Assembly: GCF_026626685.1 (NCBI RefSeq)
Contig: NZ_JAPNJX010000021.1
Location: 1 to 41,328 of the forward strand
Origin: Nannocystis sp. SCPEA4
Lineage (GTDB): Bacteria > Myxococcota_A > Polyangia > Nannocystales > Nannocystaceae
Direction of reading: 5' to 3'
Length of the DNA stretch: 41,328 nt
Shown: positions 3,070-15,977 of the stretch, in pieces
How the letters are laid out: each line of letters starts with the position of its first letter
Numbering within the stretch: the stretch's first letter is position 1
Program-made: the position numbers and the translations under genes
Notes under the pieces: model-generated
Database searches by the model: none
Seen by the model: the letters and a program-made list of their open reading frames with translations, nothing else
What the model was told of the DNA's origin: nothing

Positions 3070-4776
3070 GTGTTCGGCTCGCTCCCCCTGCCGCCGCGGC
3101 GCTACCTGCCCGCCAGCGTGCGCCTCGATCGGCTCGCCGACCTCGAGGCCTGCTACGGCGAGCTCGGGGCGCGGCCGCTGCCGGCCGACGATCCGTGGAT
3201 CCTCGAGCAGTGGCTGCGCGACTGGTCCGAGCTCGAGAGTCACCTGTCCGAAGCGCAGGCCCGGCGGCAGATCGCCAGCAGCTGCAGCGCCGACGATCTC
3301 GAGGCCGCGCGGGCCTGGCTGGTCCACGTCGACGTCCTCGGGCCCGCATGCAAGCCGCTGCGTCACGCGCTCGCGCGGCGCCTGGTCGAGCACCCCGCGG
3401 CCGCGCGCCTGCCTCCAGGCCACGCCTGCGCCCTCGCCGTCCTGCGCAACCGCGTCGATCTGTGGCGCCCCGGCCTCGCCCCGCTCGAGGTCGCCGAGCA
3501 GCACCTTTGCGCCGAGTACGGTCGGCTGCGCGCCGGCATGCAGGCCGCGTGGGACGGCGCCGACGCGCCGCTGACCCACGTCGAGCGCAGCGAGGACGAC
3601 CTCGATCGCGGCCGCCGCGAGACCGCCTGGCGCACCGTCGCCGCCAGCTTCCGCGCCGCCAAGCCCGAGCTCGATCACCTGTTCGACCGCCTGCTCGCCA
3701 ACCGTCGGGCCCAGGCCGCGGCCGCCGAGCTGCCTGACTATCGCGCCTATCGCTTTCGCCGCCTCGACCGCCTCGCCTACGGCCCGCGCGAGTGCCTCGC
3801 GCTGCACGACGCCATCGCCGCCGAGTTCGTCCCGCTCGCCGGCCGCGTCCTCCGCCGCCGCGCCGCCGCGCTCGGCCTGCCCGCCCTGCGCCCGTGGGAC
3901 CTCGCCGTCATGCCCGGCGGTCCCCTCGCCTCCTTCACCCGCGAGGAGCAGCTCATCGCCGGCTGCACCCGGGCCTTCGAGGCCGTCGATCCCGAGCTCG
4001 CGCGGCAGTTCTCCGTCCTCGCCGAACATGGCCTTTTGGACCTGATGTCAAGGCCAGGCAAGGCCCCCGGCGCCTTCCAGGTCCACCTCGACGCCAGTGG
4101 CCTCCCGTTCGTGTTCGCCGGCGCCGTCGGCCGCCACGAGGACCTGCTCACCGTCTTGCACGAGGCCGGCCACGCCTTTCACGCCCTCGCCTGCGCCGCC
4201 GACCCGCTGATCTGGAACCGCGGCCCGCCGATCGAGTTCTGCGAGGTCGCCAGCATGGGCATGGAGCTCCTGGGCGGGCGCCACCTCGGCGCCTTCTACG
4301 ACGCCGACGCCTGCACCTGCGCCGCGCGCCACCAGCTCGAGCAGCTCGTGCTGTTCCTGCCGCACGCCGCCGCGATCGACGCCTTCCAGCACTGGGTCTA
4401 CACCCGGCCCGAGCAGGCCCGCGACCCGCAGGCCCGCGACGCCGCCTGGCTCGCGCAGCACCGCCGCCTGTGCCCCGGCGTCGACTGGAGCGGCCTCGAC
4501 GACGACCGCGCCGCGCTGTGGCAGCGCCGCCTGCACGTGTTCGAGCTCCCCTTCTATTACATCGAGTACGCGATCGCCGGCCTCGGCGCCGTCCAGCTGC
4601 ACCGCCGCGCCCTCGCCGAGCCCGCGGCCGCCGTCGCCGACCTCCGCCGCGCCCTCGCGCTCGGCGCCCGCGCTCGCCTGCCCGACCTGTTCGCCGCCGC
4701 CGGCCTGCACTTCGGGACAGATCGCAGCAGCGTCCGCCGGGCCGCCGACGCCTGCCGCGAGCTCCTCGACCTCTGA
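3070..4776 (+). CDS. M3 family oligoendopeptidase (PepF-like)
   Basis: HEXXH zinc motif (VLHEAGHAFHAL). GKAPGAF motif typical of M3B. 568 aa. Confidence 0.8.
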   Translation: MFGSLPLPPRRYLPASVRLDRLADLEACYGELGARPLPADDPWILEQWLRDWSELESHLSEAQARRQIASSCSADDLEAARAWLVHVDVLGPACKPLRHALARRLVEHPAAARLPPGHACALAVLRNRVDLWRPGLAPLEVAEQHLCAEYGRLRAGMQAAWDGADAPLTHVERSEDDLDRGRRETAWRTVAASFRAAKPELDHLFDRLLANRRAQAAAAELPDYRAYRFRRLDRLAYGPRECLALHDAIAAEFVPLAGRVLRRRAAALGLPALRPWDLAVMPGGPLASFTREEQLIAGCTRAFEAVDPELARQFSVLAEHGLLDLMSRPGKAPGAFQVHLDASGLPFVFAGAVGRHEDLLTVLHEAGHAFHALACAADPLIWNRGPPIEFCEVASMGMELLGGRHLGAFYDADACTCAARHQLEQLVLFLPHAAAIDAFQHWVYTRPEQARDPQARDAAWLAQHRRLCPGVDWSGLDDDRAALWQRRLHVFELPFYYIEYAIAGLGAVQLHRRALAEPAAAVADLRRALALGARARLPDLFAAAGLHFGTDRSSVRRAADACRELLDL

Positions 4777-4796
4777 CACAGCCGCGACCGACGCGT

Positions 4797-4856
4797 CCCA
4801 TGTCTTTTTGAACATGCTCGAAAGGGCATGTCCAAAACAACATGACCTTCGAGCTC
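4797..4856. repeat. 4 x 14-bp phased CATG-core tandem array (CCATGTCTTTTTGA / ACATGCTCGAAAGG / GCATGTCCAAAACA / ACATGACCTTCGAG)
   Basis: CATG at 4799, 4813, 4827 and 4841, so exact 14-bp spacing. Low GC. It forms the bogus N-terminus of ORF 4808..7012. Confidence 0.6.
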
Positions 4857-5194
4857 AGCGGACCCCGCCCGCGCTCCGACCCCATCATCGGCTGACCCTC
4901 GCCGAGCCGGCGAACTTGTCCGCGCGCCCCACTCTCACGGACAATTCGGCCCCGTCCCCGCGAGAAGTCACGGTCCTCATCGCGCCTCTCACCCGCCAGC
5001 CCCGACGTCCTGACCCGCTGTCGCTCCCCGCCCTCGCACGCCCGCTCGCCCGCACCGATTCGCGTCCGGCGGCCGCGCCTCGACCTCGCAGGTGCTCCGG
5101 GTCATGTCTCCGGGGACAGCCGGAGATCGCCGCCGCGCGCGCCCGGTCGGCCCCTCTTGCGCCGCTCGCCCGCGCTCGCGCATCCTCTTCGCCC

Positions 5195-7012
5195 ATGTCG
5201 CCCCGCGTCTCGTGGCTCCTCCTCGCCCTCGCGCTCGCCTGTCGGCCCGATCCTGCGTCGCGGTCGCCCGAGTCCGCCCCAGCACCGGAGGCGGCGGCCC
5301 GGACCGCCTGGCGCGACCCTCCGCCCGTCGAGCTCGAGCGTCTGCGCGGCCACCTCGCTTTCCTCGCCGACGATGCCCAGGAGGGCCGCCCGCCCGGCAC
5401 ACCGGCCGACGCCCGGGTCGAGGATCACATCGAGCAGGCGTTCCGCGCGCTCGGCCTGCAACCTGGCTTCGGGGACAGCTACCGTCAGCAGTTCGAGTTC
5501 ACCAACGGCGTCGCCCTGCGCTCCGGCGAGCAGAGCGCCCTCGACGTCGGCGGCAAGCCGATCGCCCACACCCTCGTCCCGTTCGCCGCCGCCACCGCGG
5601 CCCCCGTGACCGCCCCGCTCGTCTACGTCGGCCACGGGATCCCCGGCGACAGCCCCGACAGCGGCGACTACGCCAAGATCCTCGCCAAGGTGAAGGGCGC
5701 GATCGTCGTCGCGCGCAGCGGCTCGCCCGCCGATCCGCACCTCGATCCGGCCAAGACGCGCGTCCAGTCGAAGGTCATCGCCGCCCGCGATCGCGGCGCT
5801 GTCGGCTTCATCCTCTGGGAGCCCGACGCTGTCGTCCCCTACCCCAACCACGGCGAGGCCAACGACCTCCAGCTGCCCGCCGTCACCGTCTCGGCCGCCG
5901 GCACGCCCGACCTGCTCAAGGCGTTCGGCAAGAAGGGTCCCGTCACGCCCACCAACCTCCACGGCGGTCTCGTGCCCGGCGCCACCAGCAAGGCCAGGGC
6001 CGCGCTGCACAGCCCGATCCAGCGCGTCACCGCCACCACCGCCAACGTCGCCGGCCTGCTCAAAGGGACAGGTTCCAGGCGCATCGTCCTCGGCGCGCAC
6101 ATGGACCACCTCGGGCGCGGCAACAACTCCTCGCTCGCGCCCGGCGTCGACGCCATCCACAACGGCGCCGACGACAACGCCTCCGGTGTCGCCGCCCTGC
6201 TCGGTGTCGCCGCCGCCCTCGCCCAGCTCCCGGCCGAGGCGCGCCCGTTCGACCTCCAGTTCGTCGCCTTCGCCGCCGAGGAGATGGGGCTGCTCGGCAG
6301 CAAGCGCGTCGTCGAGTCGCTCTCGCCCGAGGCGAAGCGGGACATCGTCGCCATGCTCAACTTCGACATGGTCGGGCGCGTGCGCGACAACACCGTCGTC
6401 GTCGTCGGTACCGGCACCAGCAGCGCCTGGCCCGGCCTGCTCGAGCGGGTCAAGGCCGACCCGCGGGACCCCGCGCGGACCCTCACCATCAAGCCGAGCG
6501 AGGACGGCTTCGGCGCCTCCGACCAGGCCAGTTACTACGCCGCCGACATCCCCGTCCTCCACTTCTTCAGCGGCGCGCACGACGACTACCACCGGCCGAC
6601 CGACGACTTCGACAAGATCAACCTCGACGGCGCCGCCGCGATCGCCGACCTCAGCGTCCGCCTGGTCGGCGTGCTCCTGCGCGAGCAGCCGGCCCTCGAC
6701 TTCAAGAAGGTCGCGGCCGCCGCTCCGCGCGGCGGTGGCTTCCGCGTCTCGCTCGGCACCGTCCCCGACTACGCCGCCAACGCCGACGGCATGAAGCTCG
6801 CAGGCGTCCGTCCGCAGAGCCCCGCCGAAGCCGCCGGGATGCGCGCCGGCGACGTCATCGTCAAGATCGGTGCCCGCGAGATCCACAACATCGACGACTA
6901 CATGGCCAGCTTCGGCGAGCTGCAGCCGGGCGTCGCCGTCCCGATCGTCGTCGAGCGCGAGGGCGCCAGGGTCGAGCTGACGATCACCCCGGCGGCTCCG
7001 ACGCGGCGCTGA
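5195..7012 (+). CDS. M28 family peptidase lipoprotein with PA domain and C-terminal PDZ domain
   Basis: Lipobox signal peptide [17 protein letters not shown]28 motifs ([38 protein letters not shown]). C-terminal PDZ-like segment ([28 protein letters not shown]). Start ATG 5195 chosen because the upstream ORF extension is repeat sequence. Confidence 0.8.
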
Positions 7013-7169: not shown

Positions 7170-8134
7170 ATGTCACGTCGCAACAAGATCACGATCGTGG
7201 GCGCCGGCAACGTCGGAGCGACGGCCGCGCACTGGGCCGCGCAGAAGCACCTGGGCGACATCGTCCTCGTCGACATTGTCCAGGGCGTACCGCAGGGCAA
7301 GGCGCTCGACCTCGCCGAGGCCGCGCCGGTCATGGGTTTCGACCTCAAGATCGTCGGCACCAACGGCTACGACGAGACGGCCGACAGCGATGTCGTCGTG
7401 ATCACCGCCGGGGTCCCGCGCAAGAAGGACCCGGTCACCGGCAAGTTCACCAGCCGCGACGAGCTCGTCGAGATCAACCGCAAGATCGTCGGCGGCGTCA
7501 CCCGCGAGATCGCCAGCCGTTCGCCGAACGCGGTGCTGATCTGCGTCAGCAACCCGCTCGACGCCATGTGCCACGTCATGTACGCCGAGTCGGGCTTCCC
7601 CAAGGAGCGCGTGATCGGCATGGCCGGCGTGCTCGACACGGCGCGCTACAAGTACTTCATCTCCGAGGCGCTGAACGTCAGCGTCGACGACATCCACGGC
7701 ATGGTGCTGGGCGGCCACGGCGACACCATGGTCCCGCTGCCGAGCCACACCTCGGTGGCCGGCATCCCGCTGACCGAGCTGCTGCCGCAGGACAAGATCG
7801 ACGCGATCATCCAGCGCACGCGCGGCGGCGGCGGCGAGATCGTCGGCCTGCTCGGCTACTCCGGCTACTACGCGCCGGCGGCGGCCTCGGTGGCGATGGT
7901 CGAGGCGATCGTCCGCGACCGCAAGCGCGTGCTCCCGTGCGCCGCCCTGCTGGCGGGCGAGTACGGCTACCGCGACCTCTTCATCGGCGTCCCGTGCGTC
8001 ATCGGCAAGGGCGGCGTCGAGAAGGTCATCGAGATGAAGCTCGGCGACAAGGAGAAGGGCATGCTCGAGGTCTCGGCCAACGCCGTGCGCGAGCTGGTGG
8101 CCCTCCTGCCCTACGGGAAAGGCCAGGCGACCTG

Positions 8135-8135
<1 letters not shown>
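7170..8135 (+). CDS. mdh: malate dehydrogenase (LDH-like family)
   Basis: [15 protein letters not shown] Rossmann motif. Conserved MDH core. Shine-Dalgarno-like AGGGGGAAAG 10 nt upstream of ATG 7170. Confidence 0.9.
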
Positions 8136-10224
<2,089 letters not shown>

Positions 10225-10245
10225 TCGCTCACCGCTTGCGATTGC

Positions 10246-10290
10246 GGGCCCGTGATGTCCTGAGGGACATCCGGGCCCGTCTCGTTTTTC
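10246..10290 (+). terminator. rho-independent terminator of the mdh-sucCD operon
   Basis: GGGCCCGTGATGTCC-TGAG-GGACATCCGGGCCC stem (14 bp, one bulged A) followed by GTCTCGTTTTTCG. 22 nt after the sucD stop. Confidence 0.75.
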
Positions 10291-10408: not shown

Positions 10409-11503
10409 ATGCGCAGATTGGGATGGATGCTGGCGCTCGCGGCCTGCACGCCGACGGACAACATGATGACCACCGCCTCGCCGATGTCGACCACCAGCTC
10501 GACGACCGACGACGGCGGCACCGGGATCCAGACCGTCACCGGCCATCCCACCAGCAACACCGACAGCAACATCACCGCCGATCCCACCGACACCGGCGTC
10601 ACCTCGCAGGGTCCCACGAGCGAGCCCACCACCTCCACGACCGAGCCTGTCGGCGAGTGCGGCAACGGCGTGCAAGAGGGCGCCGAGGAGTGCGACGACG
10701 GCAACGACAACGACCTCGACAGCTGCACCTCGCTGTGTCGTCCGCCGGCCTGCGGCGACGGCATCATCCACGAGGGCGAGGACTGCGACGACGGCAACGA
10801 CATCAGCACCGACAGCTGCACCGAGCTGTGCCTGCTCCCGGTGTGCGGTGACGGCTGGGCCCAGGCCGGCGAGGACTGCGACGACGGCAACGACAGCGAG
10901 GTCGACGGCTGCCTCAGCGGCTGCGTCGCCGCCGCCTGCGGCGACGGCCAGATCTGGGACGGCGTCGAGGTCTGCGACGACGGCTTCAACGACAACGCCT
11001 ACAACGGCTGCGCCCCCGGCTGCGAGGATATCGGCCCGCACTGCGGCGACGGCGAGGTGTACAAGGTCGACATCAACAAGCCCAAGGGCTTCGAGTACTG
11101 CGACGGCGAGGCGCCGTACACGGGCGTCGGCTGCACCGACAAGTGCGTCTACGACTTCTCGCAGGTCCCGCAGATGTTCTGCGCCGGCAGCTGCTCGTGG
11201 GGCGGCGCCTCGGGCTGCGACAAGGCCGACGCCGACGTGTACTGCAAGCTGAAGACCGGCAACCCGGCCTCGACGTCGACCTCGTTCACCCTCGCGGCGC
11301 CGACCGACGCCGGCGGCTTCCCGTGCTCCAACCTCGCCGTGCCGATCGAGCTCGCGGGCGTCGACCCGCGGATCGACCTCGGCCCGCTCAACGATTACGG
11401 CGTCAGCAAGACGGTCTACTACCAGGTGACCAAGATCAAGACCTCGCACGGCGGCAACGCGAGCGCGACCATCGTCGGCTCGACGCTGAAGTGCTCGCCG
11501 TAG
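10409..11503 (+). CDS. secreted lipoprotein with four tandem Myxococcus cysteine-rich repeats (CGxG...ECDDGN...DxC...C, TIGR02232-like)
   Basis: Lipobox MRRLGWMLALAAC. Ser/Thr-rich linker. Four ~36-aa CGDG/ECDDGN repeats (nt ~10658-11060). C-terminal Cys-rich domain. Confidence 0.75.
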   Translation: MRRLGWMLALAACTPTDNMMTTASPMSTTSSTTDDGGTGIQTVTGHPTSNTDSNITADPTDTGVTSQGPTSEPTTSTTEPVGECGNGVQEGAEECDDGNDNDLDSCTSLCRPPACGDGIIHEGEDCDDGNDISTDSCTELCLLPVCGDGWAQAGEDCDDGNDSEVDGCLSGCVAAACGDGQIWDGVEVCDDGFNDNAYNGCAPGCEDIGPHCGDGEVYKVDINKPKGFEYCDGEAPYTGVGCTDKCVYDFSQVPQMFCAGSCSWGGASGCDKADADVYCKLKTGNPASTSTSFTLAAPTDAGGFPCSNLAVPIELAGVDPRIDLGPLNDYGVSKTVYYQVTKIKTSHGGNASATIVGSTLKCSP

Positions 11504-12517: not shown

Positions 12518-13425
12518 AGATCCTGATCACCGGCATCAACGGCGCCCACGCGCGCATGGTCGCCCTGCGTCTGCGCGCCCGCGGCGACGAGATCCTCGGC
12601 ATCGATCGCCGGCCGTGGCCCGACGCGCCCGAGGGCGTGCACGTGTTCCAGACCGACGTGCGCAAGCGGCCGGCCGCCGACGTGTTCCGCCAGCACCGCC
12701 CGGACGTCGTCATCCACATGGCGACGATCACCCACTTCACGGCCAGCGCCGAGGAGCGGCTGCGCATCAACCTCCACGGCACGCGCCTCGTGTTCGAGTA
12801 CTGCCACGAGTTCGGCGTCAAGCAGGCCGTGTTCGTCGGTCGCCACACCATCTACGGCGCCGCGCCCGACGCCCCGCTGTACCGCACCGAGGAGGAGCCG
12901 CCGCTGGCCGTCTCCACCTTCCCCGAGCTGGCCGACCTCGTCGCCGCCGACCTGTTCGCCGCCGCCGCGCTGTGGCGCTGGCCCAACCTCAAGACCGCCG
13001 TGCTGCGCATGGTCTACATGCTCGGTCCGACCCACCGCGGCACGCTCGCCAGCTTCCTCGCCGGCCCGCGCGTACCGATGATCCTCGGCTTCGACCCGCT
13101 CTACCACTTCATGCACGACGAGGACGGCGTCGAGGCGATCGTCCGCGCCGTCGATCATCAGCTCAGCGGGATCTACAACGTCGCCGGCCCCCCGCCCGTC
13201 CCGCTGTCGACGCTCGCGCGCGGCACCGGCCGCCAGCCGATCCCGATCCCCGAGCCGCTCTTCAAGTACAGCGCCGGCCGCTTCGGCCTGCCCTACCTGC
13301 CGCCCGGCGCCGTCGCCCACATCAAGCACCCGATCGTCGTCGACGCCACCGCCTTCCGCCGCGCCACCAACTTCGAGCACAAGCACGACGCACACGCCGT
13401 CATGGTCAGCTTCCGCGAGTCGTGA
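12514..13425 (+). CDS. NAD-dependent epimerase/dehydratase family protein (SDR superfamily)
   Basis: [21 protein letters not shown]-terminal Rossmann. ATGA overlap with the upstream acyltransferase, so a likely operon. Confidence 0.75.
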
Positions 13426-13428
13426 CGC

Positions 13429-14154
13429 TCACGCCCCGCGGTACGGCCCGGGCCGGTAACGCAGCAGCGCGACCTCGAACGCCTCGAAGTGCTCGGCCAG
13501 CAGCTCGACCCGCCGCACCAGCACCGCCAGGGCGACCGGCGCCAGCCGCGGGTCGCGGACCGGGCGCTGCTTTTCTCCCGTCTCCGGGGACATGTCTGTA
13601 GAGCCAGCATCGAGCGCCTCGCCGAGCAGCACCGCCTCGACGTCGCGGGTCGAGATTCCGACCCGCGCGACCAGTTCGCGCTCGGCCGGCCCGAGCTCGC
13701 GGACGCTGCGGATCCAGCTCCACACCCAGCCGTCGATCGCCGCGTCGGCCGGGTCGGCGGCCTCGACCGCGAGCCGCAGCGCACGTGTCTCTCGGGCCAG
13801 CTCCGCGACGCGGGGCGGCAGGTGGTCGAGGGCCAGCGCCACGTCCGCCCCGGCCAGCGCTTGCCGCTCCATCAACCAGCCCGGGCGAGCGAGCACGCCG
13901 GAGAACACGCCAAACACGATCGTCCCCAGCAGGCTCGCGAAAAACACCAGCTCGAGCGGGTCAAACACGCCGCGGATGAGTGCGGTGACGATCACCGCGA
14001 TCGTCGACAAGGCCGCCCAGATCGCCATGATCTTCGCTCGCCGTCGGCGCTCGAGCCGGCGCGACTCGATCGCCGCAGAAGCCCGTTGGTGGCGAGCAGT
14101 GCGCGTCTGCGCCCGAATTGTGATCCCCGCCTCGTCGCCTCGCTCCGCCGCCAT
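13429..14154 (-). CDS. hypothetical membrane protein
   Basis: Two TM helices (IMAIWAALSTIAVIVTALI; LVFFASLLGTIVFGVFSGV). High GC3 on the minus strand. The competing + strand ORF is Arg-rich junk. The start could be internal (MAIWAAL). Confidence 0.45.
   Translation of the reverse strand: MAAERGDEAGITIRAQTRTARHQRASAAIESRRLERRRRAKIMAIWAALSTIAVIVTALIRGVFDPLELVFFASLLGTIVFGVFSGVLARPGWLMERQALAGADVALALDHLPPRVAELARETRALRLAVEAADPADAAIDGWVWSWIRSVRELGPAERELVARVGISTRDVEAVLLGEALDAGSTDMSPETGEKQRPVRDPRLAPVALAVLVRRVELLAEHFEAFEVALLRYRPGPYRGA
13581..13610. repeat. repeat-family copy (tctccggggacatgtctgtagagccagc) inside the CDS
   Basis: Shares the TCTCCGGGGACA word with the copy at 5103-5125. CATG/CAGC phased 14 bp apart. 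Confidence 0.4.
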
Positions 14155-15089: not shown

Positions 15090-15977
15090 GTGCTCGCAGG
15101 CGTGCGCCCGGTCGCCGTCGTCGGCGCCGGCTTCCTCGGCGCCCCGGTCGCGGCCGCCCTCGCGGCGACCGCCGATTCATCTGTCCTTACGACCACGCGC
15201 TCGGGGACATGGCCGAACGGACATGTCCCAGAGGGCATCGAGGTGCGCGCCCTCGACGTCGTCGCCGCGAGCGCCGGTGAGATCGCCGCCGTCCTCGCCG
15301 GCGCCAGCGCGCTCGTGGTCTGCTACGCCCCCGGCAAGCAGCAGGACCGCCGCGACCTCTACATCGAGGGCACCCGCCGCCTGCTCGCCGCCGCGGCCGC
15401 GCTCCCGCTGACCCGCCTCGTCTACACCTCTTCCACGTCGGCGCTGCCGGACCGCGACGCCTGGCTCGACGACGACTGCCCCGACTGGCCCGACGAGCCG
15501 CGCGGCCGCGTGCAGCGCGAGGCCGAGGAGCTCGTGCGCGAGGCCTGCGTCCGCCACGACCTCCCGTGGACGATCCTCCGCCTCGCCGGCCTCTACGGCC
15601 CCGGCCGCGAGCTGTTCCGCCTCTACCGCGGCGCCCCCGACGACGGCGTCCTGCCCGGCGACGGCATGCAGCCGACCAACCTCGTCCACCGCGACGACGC
15701 CGTCCAGGCCGTCCTCGCCGCCCTCGCCCTGCCTCCGGATCGGCGCGGGGTCGTCAACGTCGTCGACGACGACCACACCCCGCGGCGCGAGATCTTCGCC
15801 CGCCTCGCCGAACTCGCCGGCCGGCCGCCGCCGCGGTGGGAGCGACCGGCCACAGCGGCCGCGATCGGCAAGCGGGTCGCCAACGCGCGCCTCAAGGAGC
15901 TTCTGCGCGTGAAGCTCCTGCATCCCTCTCACACCCCGGAGAGCCCCCGATCTTGCACGCCTCCGCCGGGTGGTTAA
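15090..15977 (+). CDS. NAD(P)-binding Rossmann-fold protein, epimerase/dehydratase-like
   Basis: GTG start. VAVVGAGFLGAPVAAALAA dinucleotide-binding motif. Start ambiguous (GTG 15090 or 15102). Confidence 0.55.
   Translation: MLAGVRPVAVVGAGFLGAPVAAALAATADSSVLTTTRSGTWPNGHVPEGIEVRALDVVAASAGEIAAVLAGASALVVCYAPGKQQDRRDLYIEGTRRLLAAAAALPLTRLVYTSSTSALPDRDAWLDDDCPDWPDEPRGRVQREAEELVREACVRHDLPWTILRLAGLYGPGRELFRLYRGAPDDGVLPGDGMQPTNLVHRDDAVQAVLAALALPPDRRGVVNVVDDDHTPRREIFARLAELAGRPPPRWERPATAAAIGKRVANARLKELLRVKLLHPSHTPESPRSCTPPPGG
15181..15240. repeat. repeat-family copy embedded in-frame in the CDS (ctgtcc...gggacatggccgaacggacatgtcccagagggcatcg)
   Basis: CTGT 15181, CATG 15208, CATG 15222, CATC 15236, so 14-bp phasing. 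Read in the gene frame it gives ...SGTWPNGHVPEGIEV. Confidence 0.55.

Follow-up and report, generated by a model that had tools for sequence, protein, structure and literature searches.

The array behind the M3 peptidase gene

The DNA analysed here is a stretch of 41,328 nucleotides from Nannocystis sp. SCPEA4 (hereafter the window; 71% GC, as is the Nannocystis genome, of 12-13 Mb), in which the gene of an M3 peptidase is followed on the same strand by the gene of an M28/PA/PDZ peptidase. The subject of this work is the gap between the two genes (4777-5194), and above all the array of short repeats which lies directly behind the M3 stop codon. The M3 peptidase has orthologues of 568 aa called in loci L001 (N. 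punicea), L123 and L124. Over 605 aa, the M28 product matches an NCBI protein of Nannocystis sp. SCPEA4 at 100% identity, and among the matches listed its homologues, at least 120 in number, are nearly all ~ 580-630 aa long. Given the identical 605-aa protein and homologue lengths of ~ 600 aa, the true start of M28 is the ATG at 5195. Hence the first-pass annotation was right to take the first 129 codons of the open reading frame (ORF) 4808..7012 as non-coding, this ORF being too long because its beginning lies inside the array.

Within the array, CATG is found at 4799, 4813, 4827 and 4841, that is in exact 14-bp steps, with the first copy 22 nt past the M3 stop. This spacing bears out the four 14-bp CATG units that had been described at this place, which we locate at 4796-4847, about 345 nt before the M28 start. 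Tandem Repeats Finder missed the array, even with a minimum score of 30, since outside CATG the units diverge too much. The array holds an inverted repeat with 19-nt arms (4799-4817 / 4826-4844, 84% complementary) and its outer units pair too. The secondary-structure prediction that had been suggested for the region gave, for the array, an RNA fold of -22.3 kcal/mol on the + strand (z = -3.4), which none of 200 shuffled sequences equalled, and of -24.6 kcal/mol on the - strand (z = -2.7).

The elementary module and its host range

The array is one member of a repeat family. Indeed, the pattern GGGACATG-N10-CATGTCCC with up to 3 mismatches has 8 matches in the window against 0.17 expected, and about 10 loci of the window carry 2-7 units of roughly GGACATGTCC plus 4 nt in a 14-nt register. 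The periodicity was measured in a sample of 80 Nannocystis sequences (694 kb), which contains 216 arrays, among them 153 of 2 units, 34 of 3, 10 of 4, 15 of 5 and 4 of 6. Pairs of good units are separated by 14 bp in 331 cases and by 12, 13 or 15 bp in at most 6 each, while shuffled sequence yields 1 pair; the multiples of 14 are enriched too, with 153 pairs at 28, 101 at 42 and 44 at 56 bp. The unit logo reads G-G-A/g-C-A-T-G-T/c-C-C followed by four variable bases.

The arrays are flanked by half-units (cTGTCC at the left end, GGACAg at the right end), as predicted by a model in which the module is TGTCC-N4-GGACA. Furthermore, exact matches to TGTCC-N-GGACA are confined to one spacer length, with 96 at N = 4 and 0-1 at each other N from 0 to 11. 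On these two grounds, the elementary unit is not the CATG unit but an inverted repeat of 14 nt, TGTCC-N4-GGACA, copies of which follow one another head to tail, and CATG recurs every 14 bp because of the A|T junction of abutting modules (...GGACA|TGTCC...). The arms of the module are fixed and its spacer is strictly 4 nt long and free in sequence, apart from a rule which is strand-symmetric in every context: the first base of the loop is rarely A and the last rarely T.

An exact 16-base pattern was then scanned in one genome per species over 185,579 species. It was found at 120 loci or more; among the matches listed, 77 are from Nannocystis, belonging to at least eight species or metagenome-assembled genomes (MAGs), and each of the non-Nannocystis loci is a singleton; for the most part these are ordinary hairpins, and several have a T-run behind them. 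Nannocystis DNA holds 4.9 modules per 8 kb, as against 0-2 in other DNA. In 85 kb of sequence not selected by the pattern, 37 modules and 18 arrays are present, compared to ~ 1.4 modules per 41 kb in shuffles. The metagenome contig L127, which has the same gene order and an M28 64% identical to that of SCPEA4, carries 15 modules in 22 kb, at spacings of 14, 21, 33 bp and more, and the junctions of its 14-bp run are CCTG. Given these other spacings and junctions, the module is older than the CATG arrangement. L126, a relative of 53% identity, has no modules. The family is thus highly enriched in Nannocystis and one close relative and is not spread across bacteria. No description of a TGTCC-N4-GGACA repeat was found in the literature searched.

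Position of the arrays relative to genes

Gene context was assigned by means of our own caller based on GC content at third codon positions (GC3), whose stop codons match the independent gene calls of the N. punicea locus L001 and whose start codons are approximate. Convergent spacers hold 93 arrays, tandem spacers 51 and divergent spacers 5, while 52 arrays lie inside predicted genes and 15 at locus edges; once the arrays selected by the search pattern are removed, the corresponding numbers are 49, 34, 5, 40 and 8. Intergenic arrays are therefore 62% convergent, 34% tandem and 3% divergent. An array occupies 72 of the 106 convergent spacers across all 80 sequences and 3 of 11 in the pattern-unselected ones, and the density is 6.7 per kb in convergent spacers vs 0.27 per kb within genes. 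The distance from stop codon to array has a median of 26 nt and is most commonly 0-20 nt, the next start codon in tandem contexts being a median of ~ 250 nt off. The array between M3 and M28, ~ 20 nt after one stop codon and ~ 345 nt before the next start codon, fits this gene-3'-end pattern exactly.

Two other assignments were tried and dropped. An array of transcription-factor operators disagrees with the 3% of intergenic arrays in divergent spacers and with arms that co-vary complementarily (see below). The CATG array was also rejected as coding sequence. It does fall on signal-peptide codons of the lipoprotein in other species and within an epimerase gene, and this overlap is incidental, because a 14-nt period cannot hold a reading frame and most copies are intergenic.

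The epimerase case is an exact GGGACATG-N10-CATGTCCC at 15204-15229 of the window, inside a NAD-binding epimerase-like gene where it encodes GTWPNGHVP. It is kept in N. punicea and N. pusilla with changes in the loop codons only, and L127 has a module at the equivalent place. The start of this epimerase-like gene was set too far downstream by the GC3-based caller.

Behind sucD (window 10243-10290), a module makes up the tip of a terminator-like structure with a long GC stem, GGGCCCGTGA-TGTCC-TGAG-GGACA-TCCGGGCCC, followed by TCTCGTTTTT with a T-run 5 nt past the stem; judged on its sequence, this structure looks like an intrinsic terminator. Hairpins followed by a T-run are otherwise rare in this DNA, with 1 site per 20 kb in window positions 1-40000 vs 5-5.6 in shuffles.

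Pairing between neighbouring units

Across the arrays, the variable stem positions co-vary between neighbouring units, with z = 5.2 for positions 8/3', 4.3 for 9/2' and 3.8 for 3/8', while palindromy inside a single unit shows a negative correlation. Long arrays display compensated pairs such as GCTC/GAGC, GCCC/GGGC and GACC/GGTC, and compensated unit pairs are GGACATGCTC-gaac-GAGCATGTCC, TGACATGCCC-cgac-GGGCATGTCA and GAGCATGACC-gatg-GGTCATGCCC. Covariation between adjacent units together with anti-correlation within the unit places the symmetry axis in the 4-nt spacer, and supports the pairing of adjacent 10-nt units into a 10-bp stem with a 4-nt loop, as single-stranded RNA or DNA. The covariation fits an RNA or a DNA strand alike, and complementarity that stems from selection or from copying alike. 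Each 10-mer as an independent palindromic protein site was also considered and was rejected, the symmetry within units being anti-correlated.

The array and its relatives in other loci

Among seven related loci, five carry a module 4-24 nt past the M3 stop, whatever the downstream gene: SCPEA4 has three modules there, N. bainbridge five units, and ILAH1, N. pusilla and the MAG L125 one or two modules. The gene that comes after M3 is M28 in SCPEA4 and N. bainbridge, eutBC in L125 and L127, and a convergent gene for a 398-aa lipoprotein in N. punicea, N. pusilla and ILAH1. SCPEA4 and N. bainbridge have the gap of ~ 418 bp in common. Their arrays, of 4 vs 5 units, have the CATGs in register and differ in the loops and outer stem positions, and the last ~ 130 nt of the gap are ~ 90% identical.

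The N. punicea locus L001 is the single Nannocystis locus without a module after the M3 stop. At 7835-8248 of this locus, immediately ahead of the convergent lipoprotein gene, the end of the M3 gene (~ 110 nt) stands three times in tandem, the real copy being at 7835-8012 and the others at 8027-8133 and 8140-8248.

The gene of the 398-aa lipoprotein in N. punicea and N. pusilla (L001 9437-9490; L002, the N. pusilla locus, 9442-9485) was probably called too short, as MAVVTGC..., because its signal-peptide codons coincide with an array. With an in-frame ATG further upstream, the lipoprotein gains a proper signal peptide, MNMWLRTWYIGHVFGFMAVVTGC (in N. pusilla, MIRTWYIGHVLGFMAVVTGC), the AT-rich codons of which make up a CATG array of 3-4 units.

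The SCPEA4 array could be read as the leftover 5' end of this minus-strand gene, the body of which would have been lost from SCPEA4. L001, L002 and L123 have the gene, and the window and L124 lack it. Its AT-rich 5' end, with three to four CATGs at 14-bp spacing, resembles the SCPEA4 array, and the two arrays give weak BLAST matches (75-83% over 23-32 nt, E = 0.016-0.046). However, all arrays of the family are alike at that level, and ILAH1 and N. pusilla have the lipoprotein gene and still carry modules directly past the M3 stop. Moreover, the SCPEA4 sequence that directly follows the array on the right finds its match in the M28-proximal 345 nt of the 555-nt spacer, a part which is ~ 175 nt away from the lipoprotein's array. 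We consider such an origin very unlikely.

A second copy of the family, which the first-pass annotation had also reported upstream of M28, is present at 5100-5119 and is conserved in five Nannocystis species. Both of its 5-nt arms are invariant in SCPEA4, N. bainbridge, ILAH1, N. punicea and N. pusilla, with loops that read CCGG, TCGG, CCGA, CCCG and CCGA, respectively. A stem specific to SCPEA4, TCTCCGG/CCGGAGA at 5106-5126, was examined as well and discarded as being at chance level (z = -0.9) and not conserved.

The arrays also vary in presence and copy number. In N. punicea (L001 18426-18463) and N. pusilla (L002 18339-18376), the space between two convergent stop codons is exactly taken up by a 3-unit array, which is absent from SCPEA4, where the same site (window 13425-13429) reads TGA-CGC-TCA. 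Orthologous arrays differ in copy number, with 4-7 units at the DLH/PepSY site. Loops within one array are mostly unrelated, and identical neighbouring loops are few (4 vs 1.4 expected), with one clear recent duplication in L102. Hence the arrays are mostly old, with occasional slippage.

Such polymorphism is what a selfish or neutral repeat would produce, which would have no function at the M3 locus, could be copied by a hairpin-acting transposase, by fold-back synthesis or by slippage, and would accumulate at gene 3' ends through insertion tolerance. The array gained or lost between convergent stops, the differing copy numbers, the slight excess of identical neighbour loops with the L102 duplication, and the many intragenic copies are all consistent with this, and the insertion-tolerance argument has also been made for REP elements (PMC1525189). 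On the other hand, orthologous copies keep their stems while the loops drift, the position after M3 is kept across five lineages with different downstream genes, and the unrelated loops indicate arrays that are old yet intact. Furthermore, no transposase is found among eight genes flanked on both sides by arrays, all of which look like ordinary, mostly secreted, proteins. A repeat devoid of function at M3 seems to us rather improbable.

Comparison with known systems and role of the array

Among known systems, the closest likeness is with the REP/BIME/REPIN elements of Enterobacteria and Pseudomonas, which are also short hairpin repeats of high copy number, lineage-specific and often arranged in arrays. 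According to a 2026 preprint, REP elements in E. coli are ~ 60% convergent, 40% tandem and 1% divergent, with ~ 30% of the convergent spacers occupied, and experiments described there support a role of REP arrays as leaky terminators and exonuclease roadblocks (bioRxiv 10.64898/2026.03.23.713779). The Nannocystis split of 62/34/3% is similar, as is the copy-number and presence/absence polymorphism between relatives, and by analogy the expected role would be that of a context-dependent terminator or exonuclease block in the 3' untranslated region. Unlike REP elements, which are 20-40 nt long and occur in alternating orientations with variable linkers, the Nannocystis modules measure 14 nt, have fixed arms and a free loop, and abut with a rigid 14-bp period; a sizeable fraction is intragenic and the host is a myxobacterium. 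The GTAG-like tetranucleotide which the RAYT recognises at the 5' foot of REP hairpins does not appear in the base composition of array flanks, where only degenerate half-modules are seen. Likewise, none of the eight array-flanked genes of the sampled loci resembles, as judged by eye, a RAYT (Y1 transposase) gene.

The arrays also share features with intrinsic and bidirectional terminators, namely a hairpin a few to tens of nt past the stop codon, the T-run of the sucD copy, and the enrichment between convergent genes, where a palindrome serves both strands. They differ from intrinsic terminators in that the M3 array and most others have no U-tract and the stems of monomers are very short, and from ordinary terminators in a stem sequence conserved genome-wide, which is never the case for the latter. 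Short, fixed and lineage-specific oligomers that are greatly over-represented, as here, are further known as the DNA uptake sequences (DUS) and uptake signal sequences (USS) of Neisseria and Haemophilus, with inverted pairs in terminators, and the palindrome HIP1 of cyanobacteria, and DUS/USS often make up the stems of 3' hairpins. A spacer of strictly 4 nt and a 14-bp tiling are not known from DUS/USS or from HIP1, and we know of nothing that ties the Nannocystis modules to DNA uptake or methylation.

Taken with this comparison, the array is very probably a member of a REP-like 3'-end repeat family. As to what it does, the start of the array 22 nt past the M3 stop suggests that it would form the 3'-terminal hairpin of the M3 transcript and mark its 3' end. 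By analogy with REP elements, this hairpin may be a leaky terminator, may stop 3'-5' exonucleases, or may do both. For this terminator or stabiliser mechanism taken by itself we see the balance as even, and we lean slightly towards the full proposal of a REP-like repeat with a 3'-end terminator or stabiliser role at M3.

Several observations weigh against an RNA-level role of this kind. There is no U-tract after the M3 array, no terminator-like site in 4400-5500, and no T enrichment after arrays in general. Monomer modules have stems of 5-6 bp only and, on thermodynamic grounds, are too weak for efficient intrinsic termination. The pairing partners in the orthologous N. bainbridge array are unlike those of SCPEA4. 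A role in RNA only predicts more G.U than A.C mismatches on the sense strand, and the excess in tandem contexts is slight (49 G.U and 38 A.C, p = 0.28); the loops show no strand-specific preference for stable tetraloops (GNRA/UNCG). About a quarter of the arrays and 38% of the single modules are intragenic. Finally, the fixed arms, the strict 4-nt spacer and the strand-symmetric loop rule are unexplained by hairpin stability and point to a sequence-specific factor or a copying mechanism. Given these three features, together with the exact abutment of the modules and the intragenic copies, a DNA-binding or mobilising factor stays in play.

One form of this idea is that the modules are duplex DNA sites of a dimeric sequence-specific protein which would polymerise every 14 bp and act on topology or block RNA polymerase at gene ends. 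Candidates would be a nucleoid-associated protein, a gyrase/topoisomerase-type site or a transcription roadblock, and the BIME/REP elements of E. coli do bind gyrase and IHF. Besides the invariant arms, the strict 4-bp spacer, the symmetry of the not-A ... not-T rule, the exact abutment and the lack of strand asymmetry in the mismatches, such a protein would account for the module upstream of M28, which keeps its arms and leaves its spacer free in five species and, in three of the five, lies in a divergent region where a terminator is needless. Complementary covariation between units with anti-correlation within them is, however, predicted by nucleic-acid pairing and not by half-site recognition. 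In addition, the sites cluster where convergent genes end and are seldom found in promoter regions, and no candidate protein was identified. We consider duplex-site recognition unlikely.

In a broader form, a dedicated trans-acting factor would read TGTCC-N4-GGACA as hairpin or as duplex, either in a sequence-specific 3'-end system or in a RAYT-free propagation of REP-like type. The grounds for it are the same fixed arms, strict spacer, head-to-tail tiling and strand-symmetric spacer rule. Its 3'-end version could involve termination, processing or a roadblock, in a genome that seems poor in hairpin-plus-T-run terminators. We put this forward as a tentative possibility, on the doubtful side.

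The remainder of the gap and other features of the window

Behind the array, ~ 240 nt in the middle of the gap are essentially unalignable to N. bainbridge, the closest species of the same gene layout, and match the M28-proximal part of the N. pusilla spacer at no more than 65% identity. Pfam gave no match on the ORFs of 4857-5099. On sequence grounds, this part is best taken as an unconstrained spacer at an indel hotspot, at which other species have the lipoprotein gene or eutBC. An 11-bp-stem hairpin had been described at about 4910-4952, and an inverted repeat does exist there (4909-4951, 14-nt arms, 79% complementary), but its folding is at chance level (z = -0.17 on the + strand and -0.11 on the - strand) and it is not conserved.

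The last ~ 50 nt of the gap contain a promoter-like block which is ~ 90% identical in five Nannocystis species and is retained in part, as TTGTCA-N18-CATCCT, in the more distant MAG L125. A scan for consensus sigma-70 promoters did not call it. In the mechanism that we favour, M28 would be transcribed from this block (5157-5186) as its own promoter, and since the block ends 8 nt before the ATG, the mRNA would be leaderless or near-leaderless.

Three readings of the region had further been proposed, namely structured RNA, composite terminator/promoter and repeat nest. A structured RNA that regulates M28 in cis (as a riboswitch, attenuator or 5' untranslated region element) or a small RNA controlling M28 would suit the long intergenic gap and the conserved module at 5100-5119 upstream of M28. 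The covariance search that had been suggested was run with Rfam 15, and gave no match at the gathering score anywhere in the window and none at E <= 5 in 4700-5300. The fold of the whole gap is not unusually structured (z = -0.3), its middle 240 nt are not conserved, and both repeat copies lie upstream of the promoter-like block, which, at only 8 nt before the ATG, leaves no room for a leader. We give next to no credence to an RNA element of this kind. The composite terminator/promoter comes closest, in that the array resembles a 3'-end hairpin of M3 and the end of the gap is promoter-like. Scans of the gap for consensus promoters and terminators found nothing. As for the nest, the two family copies are there, but the hairpin between them is part of nothing detectable. 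The features of the locus are collected in Table 1.

Table 1. Coordinates in the window of the two peptidase genes and of the features between them.
Feature	Position	Strand	Remarks
M3 peptidase gene	3070..4776	+	Pfam PF01432, E = 1.5e-28; stop codon 4774-4776
Four-unit array	4796..4847	.	TCCCATGTCT tttt GAACATGCTC gaaa GGGCATGTCC aaaa CAACATGACC; from CATG positions, 14-nt register
Module 1 of the array	4801-4814		TGTCT-TTTT-GAACA; abuts module 2
Module 2 of the array	4815-4828		TGCTC-GAAA-GGGCA; abuts module 3
Module 3 of the array	4829-4842		TGTCC-AAAA-CAACA
Imperfect long hairpin of the array	4799..4844	+	8-bp apical stem with GAAA loop, nested in two more 5-bp helices
C-rich, fast-evolving spacer	4857..5099	.	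no detectable feature; holds the chance-level inverted repeat 4909-4951
1.5-module family copy	5100..5119	.	GGTCA|TGTCT-CCGG-GGACA|G; module 5105-5118, ends 76 nt before M28 start
Promoter-like block	5157..5186	+	TTGCGC (5157-5162), 18-nt spacer, CATCCT (5181-5186); ATG 8 nt downstream
M28/PA/PDZ peptidase gene	5195..7012	+	Pfam domains; N-terminal signal peptide; start ATG 5195

Three further observations concern other sequences. At 2322-2383 of the window, the 16-bp near-palindrome AGTGAGTGCTCACTCA stands at 2325-2340 and again, 43 bp further on, at 2368-2383. Both copies are in the spacer of two divergent genes, for a FAD monooxygenase (-) and a TetR-family protein (+), and look like a TetR operator pair. 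At 10677-10984, a 93-bp tandem repeat of ~ 3 copies lies in a gene with DUF4215 orthologues (Cys/Asp-rich) and is ordinary coding repetition. Lastly, a very similar hairpin, GGGGACATGC(A/G)C-loop-G(C/T)GCATGTCCCC, came up in the 16-base pattern scan once per locus in L010, L033, L088, L105, L108, L111 and L118, that is in six Caulobacteraceae loci and an unlabelled metagenome assembly (L033). The hairpin may represent a conserved terminator or else a separate small repeat.

Significance of the family

The repeat is the most recognisable gene-3'-end signal in a genome where hairpin-plus-T-run terminators look scarce. As such, it could help to define transcription units, to correct gene starts and to explain indel hotspots. 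Its positions are REP-like although the host is a myxobacterium, while its architecture is much simpler and more rigid than that of REP elements and a RAYT signature is not seen. Hence the family offers a clean test of whether position bias arises from function, that is termination or RNA stability, or from insertion tolerance. Furthermore, Nannocystis is a natural-product producer, and short portable 3'-end parts would be useful in it if termination or stabilisation by these repeats is true.

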